Source: Escherichia phage UGJNEcP3
Reading direction: 5' to 3' (one strand)
Length of the DNA stretch: 64,000 bases
Sequence record: OV876907
Both the position numbers and the translations under genes were made by a program. Position 1 is the first letter of the stretch; each line of letters begins with the position of its first letter. This document shows, piece after piece, positions 42,849 through 52,330 of this stretch. The notes beneath the pieces are model-generated. The model ran no database searches. It saw only the letters and a program-made list of their open reading frames with translations, and was not told the origin of the DNA.

Positions 42849-43162
42849 CTCTTAGATTTAATTTTATCCAGTTCTTCTTGTATTTGCATTGTAACACATT
42901 TTTCTACATGAAGCGCTAGCTCTTCTTTTCGGTCTTCGGAAGGTGTTCCGAAATCAACCGACACTTTTCCATCTTTCTCAATAACAATATTCATCACATA
43001 AACGATGTGAGCAGTGCCATCGGGTAAAGTAAGCATAATTTCCTGCTTAACAGAACCCATTGACTTACGGATTATATCTAATGATTTCTCATAATAACGA
43101 GGGTCACTAGGACCCTCTTCGGTATCTTTAACAAAATTATCTAAATCAGATAAATCAGTCAT
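42833..43162 (-). CDS. 40: gp40-position protein (head vertex assembly chaperone in T4)
   Basis: 109 aa between 41 and uvsX as T4 gene 40; not sequence-verified. Confidence 0.55.
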   Translation of the reverse strand: MTDLSDLDNFVKDTEEGPSDPRYYEKSLDIIRKSMGSVKQEIMLTLPDGTAHIVYVMNIVIEKDGKVSVDFGTPSEDRKEELALHVEKCVTMQIQEELDKIKSKRWWKW

Positions 43163-44327
43163 CTAAATCCATCTCTTCTAAATCGTTTTCGATATCAGCA
43201 GCGCTTTGGGTATTTCCACCTAATTTAACAGCAACGTTCTTAGAGACGCGAGAGTTAATAAGGTCGTTAACCGCATCGTCAACTTCTTTAATAGAATTAA
43301 TTGCACCGAGCTTATACTTATTCTCGATTGCTTCACGGAACGGAGCATGTTTAAACAGCGGTCCCCAGAACTCAACGCAATCGGTAGCTTTAGCACGCCA
43401 TGCTTTTTCTTCTTGAACCATTTCACCTGTGGTTTCGTCAAGGAATGCACGATTATACCAGCCAGCTTTAGGTTTCACGACAAAGCCGATATCAGTAGCC
43501 ATTTCAAGCAATCCACTGAATGGGTCGATACCACCTTCGAAGTTAACGGTGATAGGGAACGTTGATTTCTCTTTAACCGTACGAGATTTCTCGGCCTTCA
43601 GTGTGAAGTCATAACCTGTGAGCTCGGTACCATCTTTAACCTGACGTTTAGAGATAAAGAATACGGTAGAAGCAGAGTACAGAATACCAGTACCACCACC
43701 CATAATCTCTTTAGGATACATTCCACCAATTTCCATAGCCGTGTGGTTAATTGCTACACAAGGAATATCCTTGATGGTCAGATAAGGCGTTACGATACGG
43801 AACAGAGATTTCAGTGACTTAGCACGAGTCATATCACCTACAACTTTCTCGTTCAAAGCATCTTCGGTTTCTTTCTTAGAAGCAGTGTTACCAATAGAGT
43901 CGATAAAGATAATAACCTTTTCGCCACGAGTAATTTCTTCTAACTGGTTGGTCATATCAACTTTAAGCTGTTCGACTGACTGGATTGGGGTATGAACCAC
44001 ACGTTCCAAATCAACACCCATCGAACGGAAATAAGATTCTGAAGCACCAAACTCAGAGTCATAGAACAAACAAATTGCGTCTGGATATTTCTTCATATAT
44101 GCCGCAACCATGGTAAGTCCAAACAACGTTTTAAAGTGCTTAGATGGAGCAGCAAAGATTGTCAAACCTGATTGTAAGCCTGCATTCAACGCACCACCCA
44201 ATGCAATATTCAGCATAGGGATACGAGTAGGAACTTCGTCACGACCATTAAACAATTTAGATTTGGTCAGGTCGGCAGTCATTTTAGAAGTAGAAGCTTT
44301 AATCAAACGGGATTTTAAATCAGACAT
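43155..44327 (-). CDS. uvsX: UvsX recombinase (RecA/Rad51 family)
   Basis: 390 aa; near-collinear with T4 UvsX as recalled (MSDLKSRLIKASTSK..., YDSEFG, EKSRTVKEKS, WGPLFKH). Confidence 0.92.
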   Translation of the reverse strand: MSDLKSRLIKASTSKMTADLTKSKLFNGRDEVPTRIPMLNIALGGALNAGLQSGLTIFAAPSKHFKTLFGLTMVAAYMKKYPDAICLFYDSEFGASESYFRSMGVDLERVVHTPIQSVEQLKVDMTNQLEEITRGEKVIIFIDSIGNTASKKETEDALNEKVVGDMTRAKSLKSLFRIVTPYLTIKDIPCVAINHTAMEIGGMYPKEIMGGGTGILYSASTVFFISKRQVKDGTELTGYDFTLKAEKSRTVKEKSTFPITVNFEGGIDPFSGLLEMATDIGFVVKPKAGWYNRAFLDETTGEMVQEEKAWRAKATDCVEFWGPLFKHAPFREAIENKYKLGAINSIKEVDDAVNDLINSRVSKNVAVKLGGNTQSAADIENDLEEMDLDD

Positions 44328-44365
44328 TATATTTTTCCATAGGCATCATTATATTTTACTCACGT

Positions 44366-44400
44366 TTTAAGATAGGGTAATTATATCACTTCACATTTAC
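44366..44400 (-). promoter_or_regulatory. promoter-like element upstream of uvsX
   Basis: minus-sense gTGaTATAAT then TACCCTATCTTAAAAC box; no canonical GTTTAC -35. Confidence 0.4.
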
Positions 44401-44404
44401 AGCG

Positions 44405-45298
44405 TTAAAGGACCACGTCCTCATAACTTGGCATTTCGTGCTCAGAATGGATATGGGCACCGAAATAAATGAATTCAGCTAGACCAGGATGGAATACTAA
44501 ACCAGGATTCTCGTGATAAATGATATGAGGTCTTGATTTCAGAATCTGATAATATTCAACCTTACTAGGTTTGAATTTAATAATCTCTACATCAGGACGA
44601 TAGTCTTCACGTTTAAATGAATCATTCGGGTCGGTGATATAAAGGCGAGAACCTTCAGCTGCAGCTTGGTCTACAACTCTTTCGAATTGATAACATTTAT
44701 CAGAGATACGGAATGGATGGAAAATACCATCAATTTTAATAGGCGCTAGACCTTCAGAGTAACGCTCAATTACTGCGGGATTAATTACCTTTTGGTCTAC
44801 AAAAATCTTATCAGAGGACGCACCTCGTGACACCAGGACGTCTTTCTGGCATTGATTCAGGACTGTAGTATAAATCGAACGTTCAACTGAGGACACGTCG
44901 GTATCAATAAACTCGTCGATATAATAACGAGGAACTTCAGGGTCCATTGTAATGTTAAAGTTGAATTGTACAGTCTGAGTGCCATCATAACCTGTGATAT
45001 CGGTTACTAATCCTGAGCAGTCATAGTATTCGATTAACGAATCAACAACGAACTCGTTTTCAGACCAAAAATGTTTACGAGTTTCATAAGCATTTTCTTT
45101 ATACCAAAGCGGTACAAAATTCAGTTCAGGAAATAATTCAATGCATTCTTTGATATCGCTCGAATTTCTAGGATAAGCCAGATAATCACCTGGGCAAGCA
45201 CGGTTTAAATGGAGTTGAAAATTACCGTCCTTAAGGACGGCATATTCACCTGTTTCGTAACTACGCATACTGAAAATAGGAACGATAAACAGACTCAT
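44405..45298 (-). CDS. hypothetical 297-aa protein in the beta-glucosyltransferase locus (candidate DNA sugar transferase)
   Basis: occupies T4 beta-gt position between uvsX and 42-like gene; sequence does not resemble T4 beta-gt; no motif recognised. Confidence 0.6.
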   Translation of the reverse strand: MSLFIVPIFSMRSYETGEYAVLKDGNFQLHLNRACPGDYLAYPRNSSDIKECIELFPELNFVPLWYKENAYETRKHFWSENEFVVDSLIEYYDCSGLVTDITGYDGTQTVQFNFNITMDPEVPRYYIDEFIDTDVSSVERSIYTTVLNQCQKDVLVSRGASSDKIFVDQKVINPAVIERYSEGLAPIKIDGIFHPFRISDKCYQFERVVDQAAAEGSRLYITDPNDSFKREDYRPDVEIIKFKPSKVEYYQILKSRPHIIYHENPGLVFHPGLAEFIYFGAHIHSEHEMPSYEDVVL

Positions 45299-45993
45299 TT
45301 CAGGAATCCTCGAACATAGTCAAAATCACGTTCAAATACATGTGCACTAACCATAGTATGGGAATACGTACCCAGACCAACACCACACTGTTCAGCAATA
45401 AAGGCCATCAGTTTACCCTGCAGATAGAAATCCAGCTGCATAACGATAGCACAGTTCTGTGAACGCATATGAGTGTGTGCATACAGACGTCCATCACGAA
45501 TATAATATGTCACCGAATCGGTACAAGGATATTCTAAGGATTCGTCAGAATCAAGGAGGGCTTGGTCTTGTTCTTGGAGAATCTGGAACACAACTCTTCT
45601 TGAGTTAGGCTTCTCTTTAAGCTCTTTAAGTAAGGCTGGGAGTTGGGCCACAATTCGAGGTCCATAGAAAGTGTTGAAGTTTGCAGGCAATACGTCACTT
45701 TTCGGCTTATCAATGAACTTAGCAACATTAGGGTATTCCTTAAATGCTTCGGCGGCGTCAGTACCACCGGAAATCATAAACTTCCAGAAAGATTCGGCAT
45801 AATCATAGTTGATACGATTAATACGAGGGTCGGTGAATTTATAGGTGCTTGCATCCAGAACTTCAACTGAAGCCGAACCAATTTCATAACAACGACCGAT
45901 ACGAGAATCAACTGCAAACTGTGGAGCTTCCAGGATTTCTTCGTTCATTTGTTTAAATGCATTTTCAAAACTAACAGCGGTAATGTGTTTCAT
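45295..45993 (-). CDS. 42: thymidylate-synthase-family pyrimidine hydroxymethylase (gene 42-like)
   Basis: 232 aa; SRR arginine motif, catalytic-Cys block YPCTDSVTYYIRD, MRSQN...LD with Asp at the gp42 cytosine-specificity position, C-terminal SAHVF. Confidence 0.65.
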   Translation of the reverse strand: MKHITAVSFENAFKQMNEEILEAPQFAVDSRIGRCYEIGSASVEVLDASTYKFTDPRINRINYDYAESFWKFMISGGTDAAEAFKEYPNVAKFIDKPKSDVLPANFNTFYGPRIVAQLPALLKELKEKPNSRRVVFQILQEQDQALLDSDESLEYPCTDSVTYYIRDGRLYAHTHMRSQNCAIVMQLDFYLQGKLMAFIAEQCGVGLGTYSHTMVSAHVFERDFDYVRGFLK

Positions 45994-46526
45994 TTATTCA
46001 CCTCATAATTAATGTATTCATTAAGACGTTTTAATTCTACCATATCGACGTTAAGCAAGTTATTATGGCCGTCGTGATTTAAGATTTTAAACACGTTTTC
46101 AAAACATGTTTCATATTGGCGGATAGTTAGGTTGAACTCATCTTTAGTCAGTTTAATGAGGTCATCTTCAAAGTCTTTATCCAACGGATTACGGGTTAAA
46201 ATAACCTCAATGATATTGAATTCTTTTTTGAAATCAATCCAATCTGCTAGTTCTACATAAGGGTCCATTTCACCACGAAGGAATCCCGAGTAAACAATAT
46301 TACTAGGATAACCACGGTCTAGGATGTAAACGAAATTAGGGTCTAAAAACTTATACAACGTCTCGACTAAAGCCTTGTCATTATCAGTTCCTAACGAAAT
46401 ACATTTACCATTAATCTTTTTAGGAAAATCAATAAGACGATATTTCTTATCAGATAAAAGGGTTTCGATTAAAGTAGACTTCCCGGAATTATCCGGGCCG
46501 TCTATAACAATGATTTTTGGATTCAT
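45990..46526 (-). CDS. P-loop nucleotide/nucleoside kinase
   Basis: 178 aa; Walker A IVIDGPDNSGKSTL at N-terminus (dNK/TMK-like); unlike T4 gp1. Confidence 0.65.
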   Translation of the reverse strand: MNPKIIVIDGPDNSGKSTLIETLLSDKKYRLIDFPKKINGKCISLGTDNDKALVETLYKFLDPNFVYILDRGYPSNIVYSGFLRGEMDPYVELADWIDFKKEFNIIEVILTRNPLDKDFEDDLIKLTKDEFNLTIRQYETCFENVFKILNHDGHNNLLNVDMVELKRLNEYINYEVNK

Positions 46527-46897
46527 GGATGATAGGCCTTATAACTATCAAGAGTTCCTTCGCGAACCATTTCTTTAAAGTGGTCAGGACGAATTGCTCG
46601 GTCATCGATGATAAAAGTATAACTCGGCTTGTGTGTAAGCAAATTGTGATATTTCAATCCAATTTTTTCAAGGTTCTTAACCAATGCAGGAACTACTTCA
46701 ACCAAGATTCGGCCTGGGCCGCATGAAGTCATACCACGGGCAGTGAACAATGTAATCTCATGACCTTCATCGTACAGCTTATTAATCATGGACACCATTT
46801 CGGTGTCCGGTTTAAAGTTTTCATAATCACGGTCATCTTGCCAGTGAGTAATGGTATTATCGATGTCAAAGCACAAATGCATTAAATTTTCTTCCAT
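46523..46897 (-). CDS. HAD-superfamily phosphatase
   Basis: 124 aa; motif I FDIDNTIT (DxDxT), motif II TARG. Confidence 0.65.
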   Translation of the reverse strand: MEENLMHLCFDIDNTITHWQDDRDYENFKPDTEMVSMINKLYDEGHEITLFTARGMTSCGPGRILVEVVPALVKNLEKIGLKYHNLLTHKPSYTFIIDDRAIRPDHFKEMVREGTLDSYKAYHP

Positions 46898-48555
46898 TGT
46901 TTGTGGAGTTCAGTAGAACCTGTAGGTTTATATTTTACACCAGTTTCCTGGTCAAGCAAAACCCACTTATCAGGGCATCGAGTGATAATTTGGGCCGTAA
47001 TAGGGTCACGAACTTCATCGACAAATTCACCTGTAATAAGCTTACGCTTACGAGGATGCCGCTTCAGCAGCACACTCAGTTGATATAGACCGTTGTAATA
47101 AGCGCCCAGAGCTTTCAGAGGGTTATTTTTAAAGTAACCTGCCAACGCCATCCAGATAACAGCAATCCAGAGCTTGTGCTTAAATGTACACATTGGAATA
47201 TCATCTAAAGGCATAACCTTTTCAATATCAACGAATACTCGAGTTCCATTACGAGTTAAGCCACCCCATAGAGGGTCAGAGTTAAATTTGTCATAACCAT
47301 CGATAGAATAAAGCACCTTAGCTTCATCATAAATCGCAGGGCCTTTAGAACTATTACCAAAATAACCGCGTGGGTCGATGATTTTAATATCACCTTCGTC
47401 CGACAGCATAATATTACTGTAGTGCGGGTCGCCGTGAATAAGTTGGTACGGTTCTTTATGTTCAGACAGAATTTCTAGTGCATGACGAAGAAGTTTTTCT
47501 GGGTCGCCTACCTTAAAGTCATTGACATGGGTAATGCCCTGTGGAGCAAAGCCTTCAATCAATCCAGCAATAGAAGCATTACGAATAAGGACCTTGTCCA
47601 ATACTTCTTTCTTAACATCGGAATACCATTGCTCATCGGATGGATTATCGATAGTTCCACCAAATGAACGTAATGCACTAATGACCTTATAAACCATGAG
47701 GACTTTAGTTTCTTTAGACATAAACCGATAGGCATCTGCCATGGTGCGACCAAAGATACGTTCCATTTTAATGAATTCACCTGGAGCAAAGTCTACAATG
47801 CTCGGAACAAATTCAGAATCAATAGAATTATACCAATTGATTTCTTTAGATTGGATTTCTTTACCTAATTCGTTGGTAGGTACTTTAATAGCCAGATTCT
47901 CAGTGAACTCTAATTTATTAAATTCACGGTTAATTTCAGAATCTTCATGGGCCTTAGCCAGTTTCAATTTGTCACCGACATCAACTACAAAGTCCAGCTT
48001 ACGTTCGGTCAAATGGACCATCGAATCTAGGTTATCAGCAAGGTCTTCGCCATAATTAGAACGGTTGAAGCCTGTCCAATTAGCCACCTGATACAAACCA
48101 ACCACACCACCGCCAGTACCAATTTCACGCAAGTACGGTTCTTCAAATGTAAAACGACAGTCAGTCCCGTAGGTATAGCAATAGTCGTTATCCCACTCAA
48201 CTTTATGACCCTCAGGAATGATGTCACACCAGTTAAACAAGACGTTATGGCCAATGATATCTTCAGCAATGCAATCGATAGCATGAGCTGAACCATTAGC
48301 CACATCTACGTTACGAATAGTGAATTTAGGCTTATCACTATTAATCATGTTAATGGATTTAATATAGCCTTTAACGAGGTCGTTAAATTTGCTGTGAATA
48401 ACCAGAATAATTTCATCTGATTGGTTACTATACAAATCATACAAATGTTTTAATACAGTATGTTGTTTGTAGTTAACCAATACCTTCGGGATTTCGTTAG
48501 TAATTGGATACAACCGTGAGCCAAGACCCGCGCCTAAAATAACAACCTTTTTCAT
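46882..48555 (-). CDS. bifunctional sugar-1-phosphate nucleotidyltransferase / APH-fold kinase
   Basis: 557 aa from ATG 48553-48555 (GAGGAA SD); N-terminal ILGAGLGSRLYPIT..PKVLV (RmlA/GlmU-type); C-terminal LIHGDPHYSNIML + IIDPRGYFG (APH/ChoK-type). Confidence 0.75.
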   Translation of the reverse strand: MKKVVILGAGLGSRLYPITNEIPKVLVNYKQHTVLKHLYDLYSNQSDEIILVIHSKFNDLVKGYIKSINMINSDKPKFTIRNVDVANGSAHAIDCIAEDIIGHNVLFNWCDIIPEGHKVEWDNDYCYTYGTDCRFTFEEPYLREIGTGGGVVGLYQVANWTGFNRSNYGEDLADNLDSMVHLTERKLDFVVDVGDKLKLAKAHEDSEINREFNKLEFTENLAIKVPTNELGKEIQSKEINWYNSIDSEFVPSIVDFAPGEFIKMERIFGRTMADAYRFMSKETKVLMVYKVISALRSFGGTIDNPSDEQWYSDVKKEVLDKVLIRNASIAGLIEGFAPQGITHVNDFKVGDPEKLLRHALEILSEHKEPYQLIHGDPHYSNIMLSDEGDIKIIDPRGYFGNSSKGPAIYDEAKVLYSIDGYDKFNSDPLWGGLTRNGTRVFVDIEKVMPLDDIPMCTFKHKLWIAVIWMALAGYFKNNPLKALGAYYNGLYQLSVLLKRHPRKRKLITGEFVDEVRDPITAQIITRCPDKWVLLDQETGVKYKPTGSTELHKQWKKI

Positions 48556-48615
48556 TATCTGTTCCTCAAGTGAATGTAGGTACATTATACACTATTTTTA
48601 ATAAATTGGTATTGC

Positions 48616-49116
48616 TTAAATCTTATCTTTACCGATTTCAATACACTGTTCTATTGCCGCCGGTACTTTGGTCTTGAGCTTATCGATTTGTTTCTTATAA
48701 TCACGAGCTTTACCGAAGCTCTCGGTTTCGAGCATTTCGTAATAACGAGCCTCGTGGATGGAAATCTGTAGATTGATATGGTTTACGCACATCGCATACA
48801 GTTTCTGCTTTTTGTACAAATCATCTTGGCGCTTCATTTCTGCCTGGTGTTTGGCTAGTACCGCTTCACGCTTAGACTCTTGTTCACGTTGGAATTCGAT
48901 TTCCCTTTGAGCATATTTTGCACAGTTATTACCACATTGATTATTAGCTCGGGTATACACAAGTCCAGAACCGGCACGGAATTTCATTTCGCCATCGAAT
49001 TGTTTCTGTTCAGCTGCGATACGAGCTTTACCAACTTCATCGGCTGAAACTGCATCACCATATTGGACCGCACAACCTGATAGGAGCATACTCATTGCGA
49101 TAATTAACTTTTTCAT
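48616..49116 (-). CDS. lipoprotein with coiled-coil-like body (166 aa)
   Basis: MKKLIIAMSMLLSGCAV signal + lipobox; charged helical remainder; GAGGA SD. Confidence 0.6.
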   Translation of the reverse strand: MKKLIIAMSMLLSGCAVQYGDAVSADEVGKARIAAEQKQFDGEMKFRAGSGLVYTRANNQCGNNCAKYAQREIEFQREQESKREAVLAKHQAEMKRQDDLYKKQKLYAMCVNHINLQISIHEARYYEMLETESFGKARDYKKQIDKLKTKVPAAIEQCIEIGKDKI

Positions 49117-49123
49117 AATATCC

Positions 49124-49261
49124 TCAATTAAAACAGTTATACTTAATTTGTGCTATAAGAATAATCCATCCTATGATTAATGTCGGAATCATTGGCGGAA
49201 TTGCCACTGCCCAATAAACGGTAAAGGCAGCCATTATAAGAAATAAAATAATTATCTTCAT
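49124..49261 (-). CDS. 45-aa membrane micro-protein (imm.1-like)
   Basis: ATG overlaps imm-like stop (ATGA); hydrophobic MKIIILFLIMAAFTVYWAVAIPPMIPTLIIGWIILIAQ. Confidence 0.4.
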   Translation of the reverse strand: MKIIILFLIMAAFTVYWAVAIPPMIPTLIIGWIILIAQIKYNCFN

Positions 49262-49494
49262 TGTTTAACGATAATGATTTGTGCGGTTGATTTACGTTCA
49301 GCGACGATAGCCCAGATTAAAGCCACTACCCAACCAATCATCGTCCATCCTAACAGGAGATTAAGGAAGAAGATTCCGACATTGTTACGAGTGCCTCGCA
49401 GAAGAGCTAGAATCCATGGTAAGAAGTAAGCGATGAACATCATAACCAGAGAACCGAATCCTAAAACACCAGCACTAACGATTAAAGCTTCCAT
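49258..49494 (-). CDS. imm: Imm-like superinfection-immunity membrane protein
   Basis: 78 aa with two TM helices; directly downstream of gene 43 as T4 imm; early promoter upstream. Confidence 0.6.
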   Translation of the reverse strand: MEALIVSAGVLGFGSLVMMFIAYFLPWILALLRGTRNNVGIFFLNLLLGWTMIGWVVALIWAIVAERKSTAQIIIVKQ

Positions 49495-49519
49495 TGTAAT
49501 TTCCTCTTAAGTAGTTGTT

Positions 49520-49559
49520 AGGAAGGATAATACCACGTTCCATGTGGTATGTAAACACT
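49520..49559 (-). promoter_or_regulatory. early promoter for imm-like gene
   Basis: GTTTAC(49551-49556), 18 bp, gTGgTATTAT, CCTTCCTAACAACTAC box. Confidence 0.5.
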
Positions 49560-52270
49560 TAAAAGTCAAACATGTCAAATAATGTTGCTTTTTTCTCGTA
49601 GTCGATTTTAGCAGACTCGGTGAAACCGGTAAGAGGTTTGATAAAGGTCTTTTGGAACAATACGTTGTAGTCCATCCAACGGAGGACTTGGTCACGAATC
49701 TGAACTGGAAGTTCAATACCTGATGGCCATGCCATACAAGCTTCACCGAACGGGTTGCCTTCTTTAAGTGGAAGTACATATACCTTTTCACCGTCGACGA
49801 TACGTGGCATAGTCAAATCACCAGCAGAAGCACGCATGTAAGCTAAGCAACCTTTGATGTGATACGGGCATTTAGAACCAGGGAATCCACCTTCATTATA
49901 TTTCTCGATGTTGTTAGCACTGGATACTGCTGCAATGCTTACATAGTTTAGTTCGTTAAATTCCTTATTAAACTGTTTGAAATATTCTTGCAAAGAGGCC
50001 TCGCCTTCCTGAAGCATACGACGGATACATTCTTTCAGAGCTTTCTGAACTGCTTTAGGTGTACTTGATTTCTGAGTTTCGAGACCCATGATTTTCAAGT
50101 GTGGTTCAGCATAACGAGTACCTTCCATGTCCCAAACGTTCAGTGCATAACGTTTCTTGCCTGTCCAGAATCCACCAAGACCTTTAGAACCAAGTGGAGG
50201 TCCTGCGATAGCTTCTCGGTCCATGAACATCAAGTGCTGTTTGTTGTTCATGTATTCACACATCTCACGGAAGCCTGCATCAATAGCAGGTTCCATACGT
50301 TCACGTGCAAATTTATCTAAGAAGTCGACCCAGTGGTTAGTATCACGGAATTTTTCTTCGCCAACTTTATTGATGATGGCATCTGCCTTAACATAAATGG
50401 AGTCAGTATCACCATAGAGCACGAACTTCTGGTTTTCAGTCTTGCACACTCTATTCAGATATTCGTTAACCTTACGTTCAATCCATTGGAGGGCCATTTG
50501 ACCAAACAGTGTGATTGCAGTTGCGTTCCTGAGGTCATAATAACGGAACCATACGTTACCAAGTGCACCATAAAGGGAGTTGATAAGCAACTTACGGTTA
50601 ATCTGAGCAGTGTTACCTGCAACTTCAGTGAGCTCGGCTTTCTTCAACATTTCTCTTAAAGAAGGCCCTGACAGTGCTTTAATCTGGGCTTTGATTTCGT
50701 CAGAGAAGTCAAAACGATAATCGATATCTAGTGGACTATCAACTGAGAGATTAGGATTTTCCAATGCTTCTTTAATTAACTCACCATTACGTTGAGCTGC
50801 AAGCATGTAACCTTTATGTTCTTTACGCTGCAAGAATACCTTGGTGATTTCTGTCGGAATCACACCTTCACGGTCTTTATAATACATCATGCCGTTAGGA
50901 GAGCAACTGTAGGTGTCGCTAGGACGCTGAGCAGTTCCGGCAATATATTCATGTATCGGTGCGTTGGCGAATGTCCCTGCGATGGTCTCTGGGCTTATAT
51001 TCACTTGCCGAATGATACTCGGGTACAGAGATGTAAGGTCAAAACTCATTACATATTTGTAAGCGTTAGGAATAGGTTCCTTAACGAAAGCACCAGGATA
51101 AGGTTGGACCACGTGTGAACGACCCTGTGGAATTACCTTGCCTTGTTCTTTAAGACTATTAAAGATAATAGCGTCCCAAGTCTTAATTGGACTGAACACC
51201 GACTGAATCTGCATCTTGGCATAATAACCCATGTCCAAACTCAGAAGAATGAACTGACGTTTCATATCAATCTGCACTACACGATATACGTCGATAATGT
51301 TATAGGAAATATATCGTTGGTGGTTCGTCTCACGTAACTTAGAGATTGGACCATCATATTTCAACTTACCTACTTTCAATTCATATTCAGAAACATAATC
51401 CAGAGAATAAGAAGGCTGGTTGGTAAAGCTGAATTTTTTATACAGGTCGATATAATCCAGAACAGAGATACCGAACAGTGTAATAATTTCACGAGCACCG
51501 TACATGTTCTCAATAACTTTAACACGAGTTTTACGATGCGGGCTTAATCGCTTAGCAGTGTTCTCACCGAACAGATTTTTCAGACGGTTATAAACGTACG
51601 GCACGTCAAATGACTCAACGTTCCACCCAGTCAAAATCACAGGAGTTTTCTGTTGCCAGAAATTCAGGTACTCAAGCATCATTTCTTCTTCAGAATTAAA
51701 CGAAAGATAAACGATTTTGTCAATGATTTCCTGTGGAACTTCGTCACCACCTTCGTCTTGGAGTTTCTCAGCGATTTTAATCGACCACTCTTCAACAGTA
51801 CCATAAGGCGAAACTAAAAGGTCGAATACATAGAATTTATCGTCAATCGAGTCGTAGTGGGTAATGGCATCGATAGGATGTTTAGCCTGAGCTGGTTCAG
51901 GGAATCCATCAGGAGATGTTACCTCGATGTCGAAGTTAGCAATACGAATCTTAGAAGAATCATATTTGATTTCTTTACGATAGGTATCAGACAAATAGGC
52001 TAATTTATAGTCGTCCATACCCAGGGCTTCGAGACCCATATCGTCCATACGTTTCATCCATTGGGATGCATCACGCATAGAGTCGAATTCTTTCTTAACA
52101 CAACCCTTACCATAGATATCAATGTATTTTACGGCTTGCTCTGGATTGGCATGCATAAACATTGTAGGCTTGTATGGAACTTCACGACTACGTTCGTTAC
52201 CATTTTTATCGATGTAACGTTCGAGAATATTATCACCGATTTGTTCGACTGTCAAATAGAATTCTTGCAT
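49559..52270 (-). CDS. 43: DNA polymerase gp43 (family B, with 3'-5' exonuclease)
   Basis: 903 aa from ATG 52268-52270 (AAGGAAA SD; track start 52330 is TTG); Exo I FDIEV, motif A DLTSLYPSI, motif C YGDTDS; N-terminus closely resembles RB69 gp43 (memory). Confidence 0.93.
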   Translation of the reverse strand: MQEFYLTVEQIGDNILERYIDKNGNERSREVPYKPTMFMHANPEQAVKYIDIYGKGCVKKEFDSMRDASQWMKRMDDMGLEALGMDDYKLAYLSDTYRKEIKYDSSKIRIANFDIEVTSPDGFPEPAQAKHPIDAITHYDSIDDKFYVFDLLVSPYGTVEEWSIKIAEKLQDEGGDEVPQEIIDKIVYLSFNSEEEMMLEYLNFWQQKTPVILTGWNVESFDVPYVYNRLKNLFGENTAKRLSPHRKTRVKVIENMYGAREIITLFGISVLDYIDLYKKFSFTNQPSYSLDYVSEYELKVGKLKYDGPISKLRETNHQRYISYNIIDVYRVVQIDMKRQFILLSLDMGYYAKMQIQSVFSPIKTWDAIIFNSLKEQGKVIPQGRSHVVQPYPGAFVKEPIPNAYKYVMSFDLTSLYPSIIRQVNISPETIAGTFANAPIHEYIAGTAQRPSDTYSCSPNGMMYYKDREGVIPTEITKVFLQRKEHKGYMLAAQRNGELIKEALENPNLSVDSPLDIDYRFDFSDEIKAQIKALSGPSLREMLKKAELTEVAGNTAQINRKLLINSLYGALGNVWFRYYDLRNATAITLFGQMALQWIERKVNEYLNRVCKTENQKFVLYGDTDSIYVKADAIINKVGEEKFRDTNHWVDFLDKFARERMEPAIDAGFREMCEYMNNKQHLMFMDREAIAGPPLGSKGLGGFWTGKKRYALNVWDMEGTRYAEPHLKIMGLETQKSSTPKAVQKALKECIRRMLQEGEASLQEYFKQFNKEFNELNYVSIAAVSSANNIEKYNEGGFPGSKCPYHIKGCLAYMRASAGDLTMPRIVDGEKVYVLPLKEGNPFGEACMAWPSGIELPVQIRDQVLRWMDYNVLFQKTFIKPLTGFTESAKIDYEKKATLFDMFDF

Positions 52271-52330
52271 TTCATTTCCTTTATAGACGAGTGATTGTCT
52301 TTTGTTTGTTGATGAATCATTATACTCCAA

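Follow-up and report, generated by a model that had tools for sequence, protein, structure and literature searches.

What would a phage do with a sugar-1-phosphate nucleotidyltransferase fused to a kinase of the aminoglycoside phosphotransferase (APH) fold, and which sugar would such an enzyme activate? The question is raised by a minus-strand gene in a 64,000-nucleotide stretch of the genome of Escherichia phage UGJNEcP3 (record OV876907), the whole of which is called the window here. The gene encodes 557 amino acids, and its product is the orthologue of AfhE, an enzyme of phage HY126. Very probably, it supplies the sugar donor for the arabinosylation of 5-hydroxycytosine in the phage DNA. 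Over the tested 5.3 kb, the window matched phage UGJNEcP4 (OV877765.1; Straboviridae, Tevenvirinae, Dhakavirus) with 100% identity, and the same region was about 93–96% identical to those of QL01, WG01, Bp7, MX01 and JS10. The phage is thus a Dhakavirus and not T4, for which the original prediction, made from the sequence alone, had noted no such fusion; we agree with it on T4.

Two enzyme domains in one polypeptide

The presence of both folds in one chain, as originally predicted, was borne out by two Pfam domains and a confident AlphaFold model. NTP_transferase was found at residues 3–100 (E 2.4e-8) and APH at residues 346–417 (E 1.2e-5), both exceeding the gathering score. A profile of 81 homologues, the alignment used throughout, was compared with PDB sequences: its N-terminal half matched HddC (3e-11) and LicC (9e-11), as well as GDP-mannose pyrophosphorylases and RmlA, while positions 221–404 matched APH(2'') (3uzr and 3ham, about 2e-4). 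The AlphaFold2 model built on this alignment had a mean pLDDT of 94.4 and a pTM of 0.91, with no disordered segment. A fold search placed MurU, LicC and LicA among the top structural matches, and the nearest kinase folds were choline kinase, APH enzymes and glucosamine kinase. Both folds are therefore real, by four independent routes. No AfhE structure was found in the PDB by sequence, profile or fold.

Based on the model and phrog_21938, the nucleotidyltransferase occupies about 205 residues, the kinase about 295 and a C-terminal tail 57, so the predicted sizes of about 250 and 200 residues for the two domains did not hold. The three motifs quoted in support of the fusion are all present (Table 1). 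Residues G10, R14, K24, D111, D192 and D195 of the nucleotidyltransferase domain are invariant in the homologues, as are K224, E238, H374-G375-D376, N381 and D394 of the kinase domain. The loss of the catalytic Asp or Asn, which would have spoken against a kinase, was looked for; Asp376, Asn381 and the metal-binding Asp394 are all in place. The kinase half has further invariant basic residues (R210, R325, R396, K413 and K481).

Of the 81 aligned sequences, only 33 have the C-terminal tail, and distant homologues, covering about 87–89% of the query, mostly appear to lack it. It might serve in oligomerisation or in docking of the phosphatase. PHROG 21938 represents the kinase domain alone (residues 207–499, E 2e-31); hence, some phages seem to encode the kinase without a fused nucleotidyltransferase.

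In the window's list of open reading frames (ORFs), this frame extends over 46882..48585 (567 amino acids), and the 557-residue version from ATG 48555 begins MKKVVILGAGLGSRLYPIT. A start at this internal ATG is well supported by the sequence and probably the one used, since GAGGAA lies 6 nucleotides upstream, the upstream ATG has no Shine–Dalgarno sequence, and all 81 homologues start at the equivalent M-K/R-K-V/A-V-I, none of them with the 10-residue extension. The prediction of an untranslated N-terminal extension is therefore upheld. The annotated protein CAH1616651.1 of UGJNEcP4, labelled "hypothetical protein", coincides exactly with 46882–48555.

The upstream ATG overlaps a −10-like TATAAT at 48584–48589 on the minus strand. 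A sigma-70 promoter and terminator scan of 44200–49700 gave 17 sites against 18.2 expected from shuffled sequence and missed this TATAAT, near which neither a clear −35 hexamer nor a MotA box was seen by eye. For these reasons, no promoter is claimed for the gene.

Orthology to AfhE and the proposed pathway

The fusion protein and HY126 AfhE (557 and 562 amino acids) are collinear from end to end, with 43% identity (E 2e-144), and phrog_4098 matches residues 1–557 (E 3e-269). The homology is thus of full length, and the protein carries the G-x-G-x-R-L signature with its Lys and acidic residues, as well as H-G-D-x4-N with the metal-binding Asp. The two domains, the length and the catalytic motifs are also those of RB69 gp52:53, Acinetobacter phage DLP3 gp82 and Bas46_0146. 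When the HY126 cluster (PP658200.1) was compared gene by gene with the window operon, the same neighbours were found in the same slot between the polymerase gene and uvsX. The AfhF phosphatase of the HAD family, the 5-hydroxy-dCMP synthase and the DNA arabinosyltransferase are linked to the fusion gene in one minus-strand operon, together with a P-loop kinase, which here, unlike in HY126, directly follows the phosphatase. Linkage to a phage arabinose-5-phosphate isomerase, which characterises the HY126, RB69 and DLP3 clusters and not the enzyme as such, was not found.

According to He et al. (2026, Nat Chem Biol), as summarised in PMC13326640, AfhE is a dual enzyme, both a kinase for D-arabinose-5-phosphate and a pyrophosphorylase for UDP-D-arabinose. 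The HY126 enzyme is described there as phosphorylating C1 of D-arabinose-5-phosphate to arabinofuranose-1,5-bisphosphate (Araf-1,5-P2) and converting arabinofuranose-1-phosphate and UTP to UDP-arabinofuranose. Between these two steps, AfhF acts as a Mg-dependent phosphatase on the 1,5-bisphosphate (PMC13326640, citing He et al. 2026). The DNA of RB69 and DLP3 contains arabinosylated 5-hydroxycytosine (Lee et al. NAR 2026, PMC13326640). The same paper reports an N-terminal nucleotidyltransferase and a C-terminal kinase domain for RB69 gp52:53 and DLP3 gp82, describes the thymidylate-synthase homologue as a 5-hydroxy-dCMP synthase, with the function shown for RB69 gp48 and DLP3 gp80, assigns the arabinosyltransferase role to the RB69 gp46:47-type protein (its Table 1), and names Dhakaviruses among the genera carrying the arabinosylation cluster.

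The fusion itself, the pathway and its spread in the Straboviridae are thus already known and not new. RB69 ORF53_52c had been proposed as a UDP-arabinose candidate by Thomas et al. (2018, PMC6024577), who also pointed out fusions to a SIS isomerase domain in bacteria and "GutQ" fusions in Butyrivibrio. A 2021 survey listed RB69p052 with RmlA and aminoglycoside-phosphotransferase homologues (PMC8056088), and the BASEL annotation of the Bas46 homologue (Bas46_0146) reads "putative enzyme involved in UDP-arabinose biosynthesis". It should be noted that PHROGs files the family under "unknown function", and NCBIfam (June 2026) gave sub-threshold superfamily matches only, with no dedicated model for the fusion.

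From the PMC13326640 summary of the HY126 work, we suggest the following pathway; its substrates, the order of its steps, its specificity for UTP and the resulting DNA modification are carried over by homology. With ATP, the C-terminal kinase would add a phosphate to the anomeric C1 of D-arabinofuranose-5-phosphate, and arabinofuranose-1,5-bisphosphate would result. Then, the HAD phosphatase encoded by the next gene would take off the 5-phosphate, and the N-terminal RmlA/MurU-type nucleotidyltransferase would convert the resulting arabinofuranose-1-phosphate and UTP to UDP-arabinofuranose and pyrophosphate. The 297-residue glycosyltransferase, the product of the last operon gene, is proposed to move the arabinose onto 5-hydroxycytosine in DNA, a base that the thymidylate-synthase homologue would have supplied as 5-hydroxy-dCMP. 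The starting sugar phosphate presumably comes from the host Kdo pathway (KdsD/GutQ), since the phage encodes no arabinose-5-phosphate isomerase. From the literature, the pentoses and hexoses first suggested as substrates can be reduced to D-arabinose-5-phosphate and arabinofuranose-1-phosphate.

The main rival is a reverse order of steps with the same end product: the HAD phosphatase would free D-arabinose, the kinase would phosphorylate the free sugar anomerically, in the manner of AmgK or NahK, and the transferase would uridylylate the sugar-1-phosphate. The nearest kinase folds, those of choline kinase, APH enzymes and glucosamine kinase, take unphosphorylated small molecules, and the AmgK–MurU salvage pair likewise works on the free sugar, which counts for this order. 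So does Table 1 of PMC13326640, in which DLP3 gp81 and RB69 gp51 are entered as "dephosphorylates Araf5p to Ara" and the C-terminal domain as "phosphorylates Ara to Araf1p". However, the text of PMC13326640, in its summary of the HY126 work, has AfhE making Araf-1,5-P2 from the 5-phosphate and AfhF then removing a phosphate. The five invariant basic residues R210, R325, R396, K413 and K481 would be available for a second phosphate, although this is suggestive only. Computationally, the two step orders are indistinguishable; in view of the HY126 description, we regard the reverse order as quite unlikely.

A small operon and a divergent subclade

The fusion gene is the first of five genes in a tightly packed minus-strand operon (44405–48555), which lies between the DNA polymerase gene (gene 43, 49559–52330) and uvsX (43155–44327). 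Its junction with the HAD phosphatase gene is TAATG (1-nucleotide overlap), and those between the phosphatase and P-loop kinase genes, the kinase gene and the thyA homologue, and the thyA homologue and the glycosyltransferase gene are each ATGA. The overlaps between the five genes are thus of 1–4 nucleotides, which supports their linkage in one pathway. The predicted stop/start overlaps involving the phosphatase and P-loop kinase genes are thus confirmed.

Table 1. Features of the fusion gene and the downstream operon (window coordinates).
Feature	Coordinates	Strand	Basis and remarks
AfhE-orthologue coding sequence, 557 amino acids	46882..48555	-	ORF list; annotated as CAH1616651.1; 43% to HY126 AfhE; stop TAA 46882-46884
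Shine–Dalgarno GAGGAA	48562-48567	-	sequence; 6 nucleotides 5' of ATG 48555
In-frame upstream ATG, probably unused	48583-48585	-	without Shine–Dalgarno; overlaps -10-like TATAAT
N-terminal sugar-1-phosphate nucleotidyltransferase domain, residues ~1-205	47941..48555	-	model limits, invariant residues
ILGAGLGSRLYPIT, G-x-G-x-R-L nucleotide-binding signature, residues 6-19	48499..48540	-	sequence; kept in all aligned homologues
APH/choline-kinase-fold kinase domain, residues ~206-500	47056..47940	-	model limits, invariant residues
HGDPHYSN, Brenner catalytic-loop motif, residues 374-381 (catalytic D376, N381)	47413..47436	-	sequence and alignment
IIDPRGYFG, DFG-equivalent metal-binding segment, residues 392-400 (D394)	47356..47382	-	I393-G400 all invariant
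C-terminal tail, short beta-strands, residues ~501-557	46885..47055	-	AlphaFold secondary structure, pLDDT 84-93
HAD-family phosphatase, AfhF orthologue, DxD motif FDIDNT	46523..46897 or ..46882	-	61% to HY126 AfhF, E 5e-62
P-loop (thymidylate-kinase-like) kinase, 178 amino acids	45990..46526	-	36% to HY126 182-residue protein, E 7e-35; RB69 gp45 orthologue; phrog_761
Thymidylate-synthase homologue, predicted 5-hydroxy-dCMP synthase	45295..45993	-	79% to HY126 enzyme; Pfam PF00303
Predicted DNA arabinosyltransferase 1, 297 amino acids, RB69 gp46:47 orthologue	44405..45298	-	67% to HY126 299-residue protein, E 7e-150; phrog_3891

The HAD phosphatase matched the capsule-biosynthesis phosphatase model TIGR01689 below cut-off (E 5.5e-14), and its PHROG 1238 label, "phosphoheptose isomerase", is misleading. 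Its start is ambiguous: ATG 46882 (119 amino acids, TAATG overlap), which is that of the record, or ATG 46897 (124 amino acids, 16-nucleotide overlap). Neither has a clear Shine–Dalgarno sequence, and the annotators of HY126 and Bas46 chose the start of the orthologue differently. As for the P-loop kinase, a role as a nucleotide kinase is more probable than one in the sugar pathway. The names "thymidylate synthase" and "dCMP hydroxymethylase" given to the thymidylate-synthase homologue are also misleading; a true thyA is found at another place in the genome (147158–148021 of the record). The predicted arabinosyltransferase had no Pfam match.

Between the polymerase and fusion genes are imm and a 166-residue lipoprotein-like ORF (48616–49116, minus strand; lipoprotein-type signal MKKLIIAMSMLLSGC), which belongs to PHROG 1754, with no function assigned there. 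HY126 and Bas46 have an isomerase and a 47-residue ORF at this position instead. A 40-residue match to the latter ORF of HY126 (57% identity, E about 1e-12) was found at 49127–49246 on the minus strand, between the 166-residue ORF and imm; it is absent from the window's ORF list, which holds ORFs of at least 50 amino acids.

Full-length homologues of the fusion protein were found in 367 phage records, with at least 95% identity in 51 of them (Dhakavirus and close relatives). Identity falls to 80% in Klebsiella Marfavirus, 72% in Providencia phage PSTCR6, 43–44% in Acinetobacter phages such as Maestro and DLP1, 42–43% in Mosigvirus (the RB69, Bas46 and HY126 group) and 24–28% in jumbo phages of Vibrio, Sphingomonas and Tenacibaculum. 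Three subclade genes were compared, namely that of the window and those at L012:4501-6165 and L013:4501-6159. The gene order of Marfavirus PhiKpNIH-6 and of PSTCR6 is as here (fusion, phosphatase, P-loop kinase), with no isomerase beside the polymerase gene in either. PhiKpNIH-6 retains a 386-residue gp50-type gene, and PSTCR6 has a gene of similar size in the corresponding place.

Several points weigh against the arabinosylation role, in addition to the Table 1 wording of PMC13326640 cited above. Identity to the characterised AfhE is only 43%, and the mechanism of the latter is taken second-hand, from the summary of He et al. (2026) in PMC13326640. The accessible literature gave no enzyme assay, DNA analysis or DNA composition for any Dhakavirus. 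The fusion proteins of Dhakavirus, Marfavirus and PSTCR6 form a divergent subclade with 42–47% identity to all others, while those of Mosigvirus and of Acinetobacter, Shewanella, Pseudomonas and Yersinia phages share 45–71% among themselves, mostly 48% or more. Finally, HY126 and RB69 genes were searched by tblastn against the complete UGJNEcP4 genome, that is, the window and the loci L005–L007 overlapping it at both ends. This search gave no arabinose-5-phosphate isomerase, no 386-residue gene like RB69 gp50 and no second arabinosyltransferase like RB69 gp3; as a result, the pathway context is not identical to that of HY126 or RB69. The role of the enzyme here is predicted from sequence. Among phage records, 276 carry the isomerase, compared with 367 that have the fusion. 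In the view of the whole genome (the window with L005, L006, L007 and L009), only three small ORFs lie between rIIA and the topoisomerase gene. At L006:19107-21606 (113106–115605 of the record), a DNA helicase gene of this phage seems to be interrupted by a gene for a homing endonuclease, the annotation there reading helicase, homing endonuclease, helicase.

With five genes, this arabinosylation cluster is the smallest met in this analysis, and so mono-arabinosylation and dependence on host arabinose-5-phosphate are predicted. On the simplest reading, the minimal pathway would use arabinose-5-phosphate of the host Kdo pathway and add a single arabinose. It could further be proposed that the Dhakavirus, Marfavirus and Providencia-phage version is a functionally distinct, stripped-down five-gene subtype, drawing on the host sugar-phosphate pool (either arabinose-5-phosphate made by KdsD/GutQ or, perhaps, a different pentose phosphate) and placing a single sugar on 5-hydroxycytosine; we put this forward tentatively and consider it unlikely.

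Another possibility is that the divergent enzyme activates a different sugar, for example starting from another host pentose phosphate, or uses a different nucleotide, which would leave a non-arabinose glycosyl-5-hydroxycytosine in the DNA. The low identity to all other clades (42–47%) and the lack of the isomerase and the gp50-like gene would fit this, and related clusters do make other sugars, such as galactofuranose in RL38J1 (PMC13326640). However, a different sugar is very unlikely, because the partner phosphatase (61%), glycosyltransferase (67%) and 5-hydroxy-dCMP synthase (79%) remain close to their HY126 counterparts. Moreover, Escherichia coli makes arabinose-5-phosphate constitutively for Kdo. 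The grouping of Dhakaviruses with arabinosylating clusters in PMC13326640 also argues against another sugar.

A GlmU-like enzyme, or a LicA/LicC-like choline or ethanolamine kinase with a cytidylyltransferase, unrelated to DNA modification, is effectively refuted: some phage records do name homologues "bifunctional protein GlmU", but every NCBIfam equivalog score is far below cut-off, the C-terminal half is a kinase and not a left-handed beta-helix acetyltransferase, and the protein is a full-length AfhE orthologue whose gene, located between uvsX and gene 43, forms part of a DNA-modification operon. The GlmU model TIGR01173 gave 21.8 bits (cut-off 366.85) over residues 3–101 only. The RmlA, GalU, MurU and HddC equivalogs likewise scored far below their cut-offs (e.g., MurU 23.9 vs. 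370, HddC 19.8 vs. 300), so that only the superfamily fold is common to them and the fusion protein. The LicA/LicC and generic RmlA assignments were thus rejected on domain content and score thresholds.

Related architectures and meaning for the Dhakaviruses

Similar enzyme pairs are known outside phages. AmgK and MurU act in the recycling of N-acetylmuramic acid (MurNAc) in Pseudomonas, and LicA and LicC in the pneumococcal phosphocholine pathway, with LicCA fusions in some bacteria. As in the fusion protein, a kinase of the APH/choline-kinase fold is paired there with a small RmlA-type nucleotidyltransferase in one activation pathway. However, the two enzymes there are as a rule two polypeptides and act on free MurNAc or choline rather than on a sugar 5-phosphate, no phosphatase step lies between them, and no sequence relationship to the fusion protein is detectable beyond the fold. 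Fkp of Bacteroides, an L-fucokinase/GDP-fucose pyrophosphorylase, also combines an anomeric sugar kinase with an N-terminal NDP-sugar pyrophosphorylase in one polypeptide. Its kinase has the GHMP fold, uses GTP and fucose, and is not homologous to the APH-fold half found here.

Closer in sequence are three metagenomic proteins of 922–946 amino acids (P0068, P0077 and P0094), which share the transferase–kinase module (29–32% identity over about 89% of the query). They differ in having an HAD phosphatase and a SIS domain of the arabinose-5-phosphate-isomerase type added in the same chain, which ties the module to these two activities and lends independent support to the logic of the proposed pathway. 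They do not evidently sit in a phage DNA-modification cluster: the gene for P0094 (L008:14-2854) has a sulfotransferase neighbour and may therefore belong to a cellular glycan pathway.

The discovery value of these results is small, since the fusion, the pathway and its spread, with Dhakaviruses named, are all in the literature, and biochemical characterisation of a homologue has been reported. The residual interest lies only in the minimal, isomerase-less cluster with its divergent enzyme and in the correction of annotation. The gene is a "hypothetical protein" in UGJNEcP4 and dozens of related records, and misleading names are attached to the genes beside it, namely "phosphoheptose isomerase", "thymidylate kinase" and "thymidylate synthase" or "dCMP hydroxymethylase".

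Recognition of the operon predicts arabinosylated 5-hydroxycytosine in these therapeutic-candidate coliphages. Such a modification would affect their sensitivity to restriction, CRISPR and type IV defence, as well as the behaviour of their DNA in sequencing and cloning. The five-gene Dhakavirus cluster also offers a convenient natural test of the gene set sufficient for modification. If the distinct subtype proposed above were real, it would show the minimal gene set for this DNA hypermodification, possibly with a different sugar.

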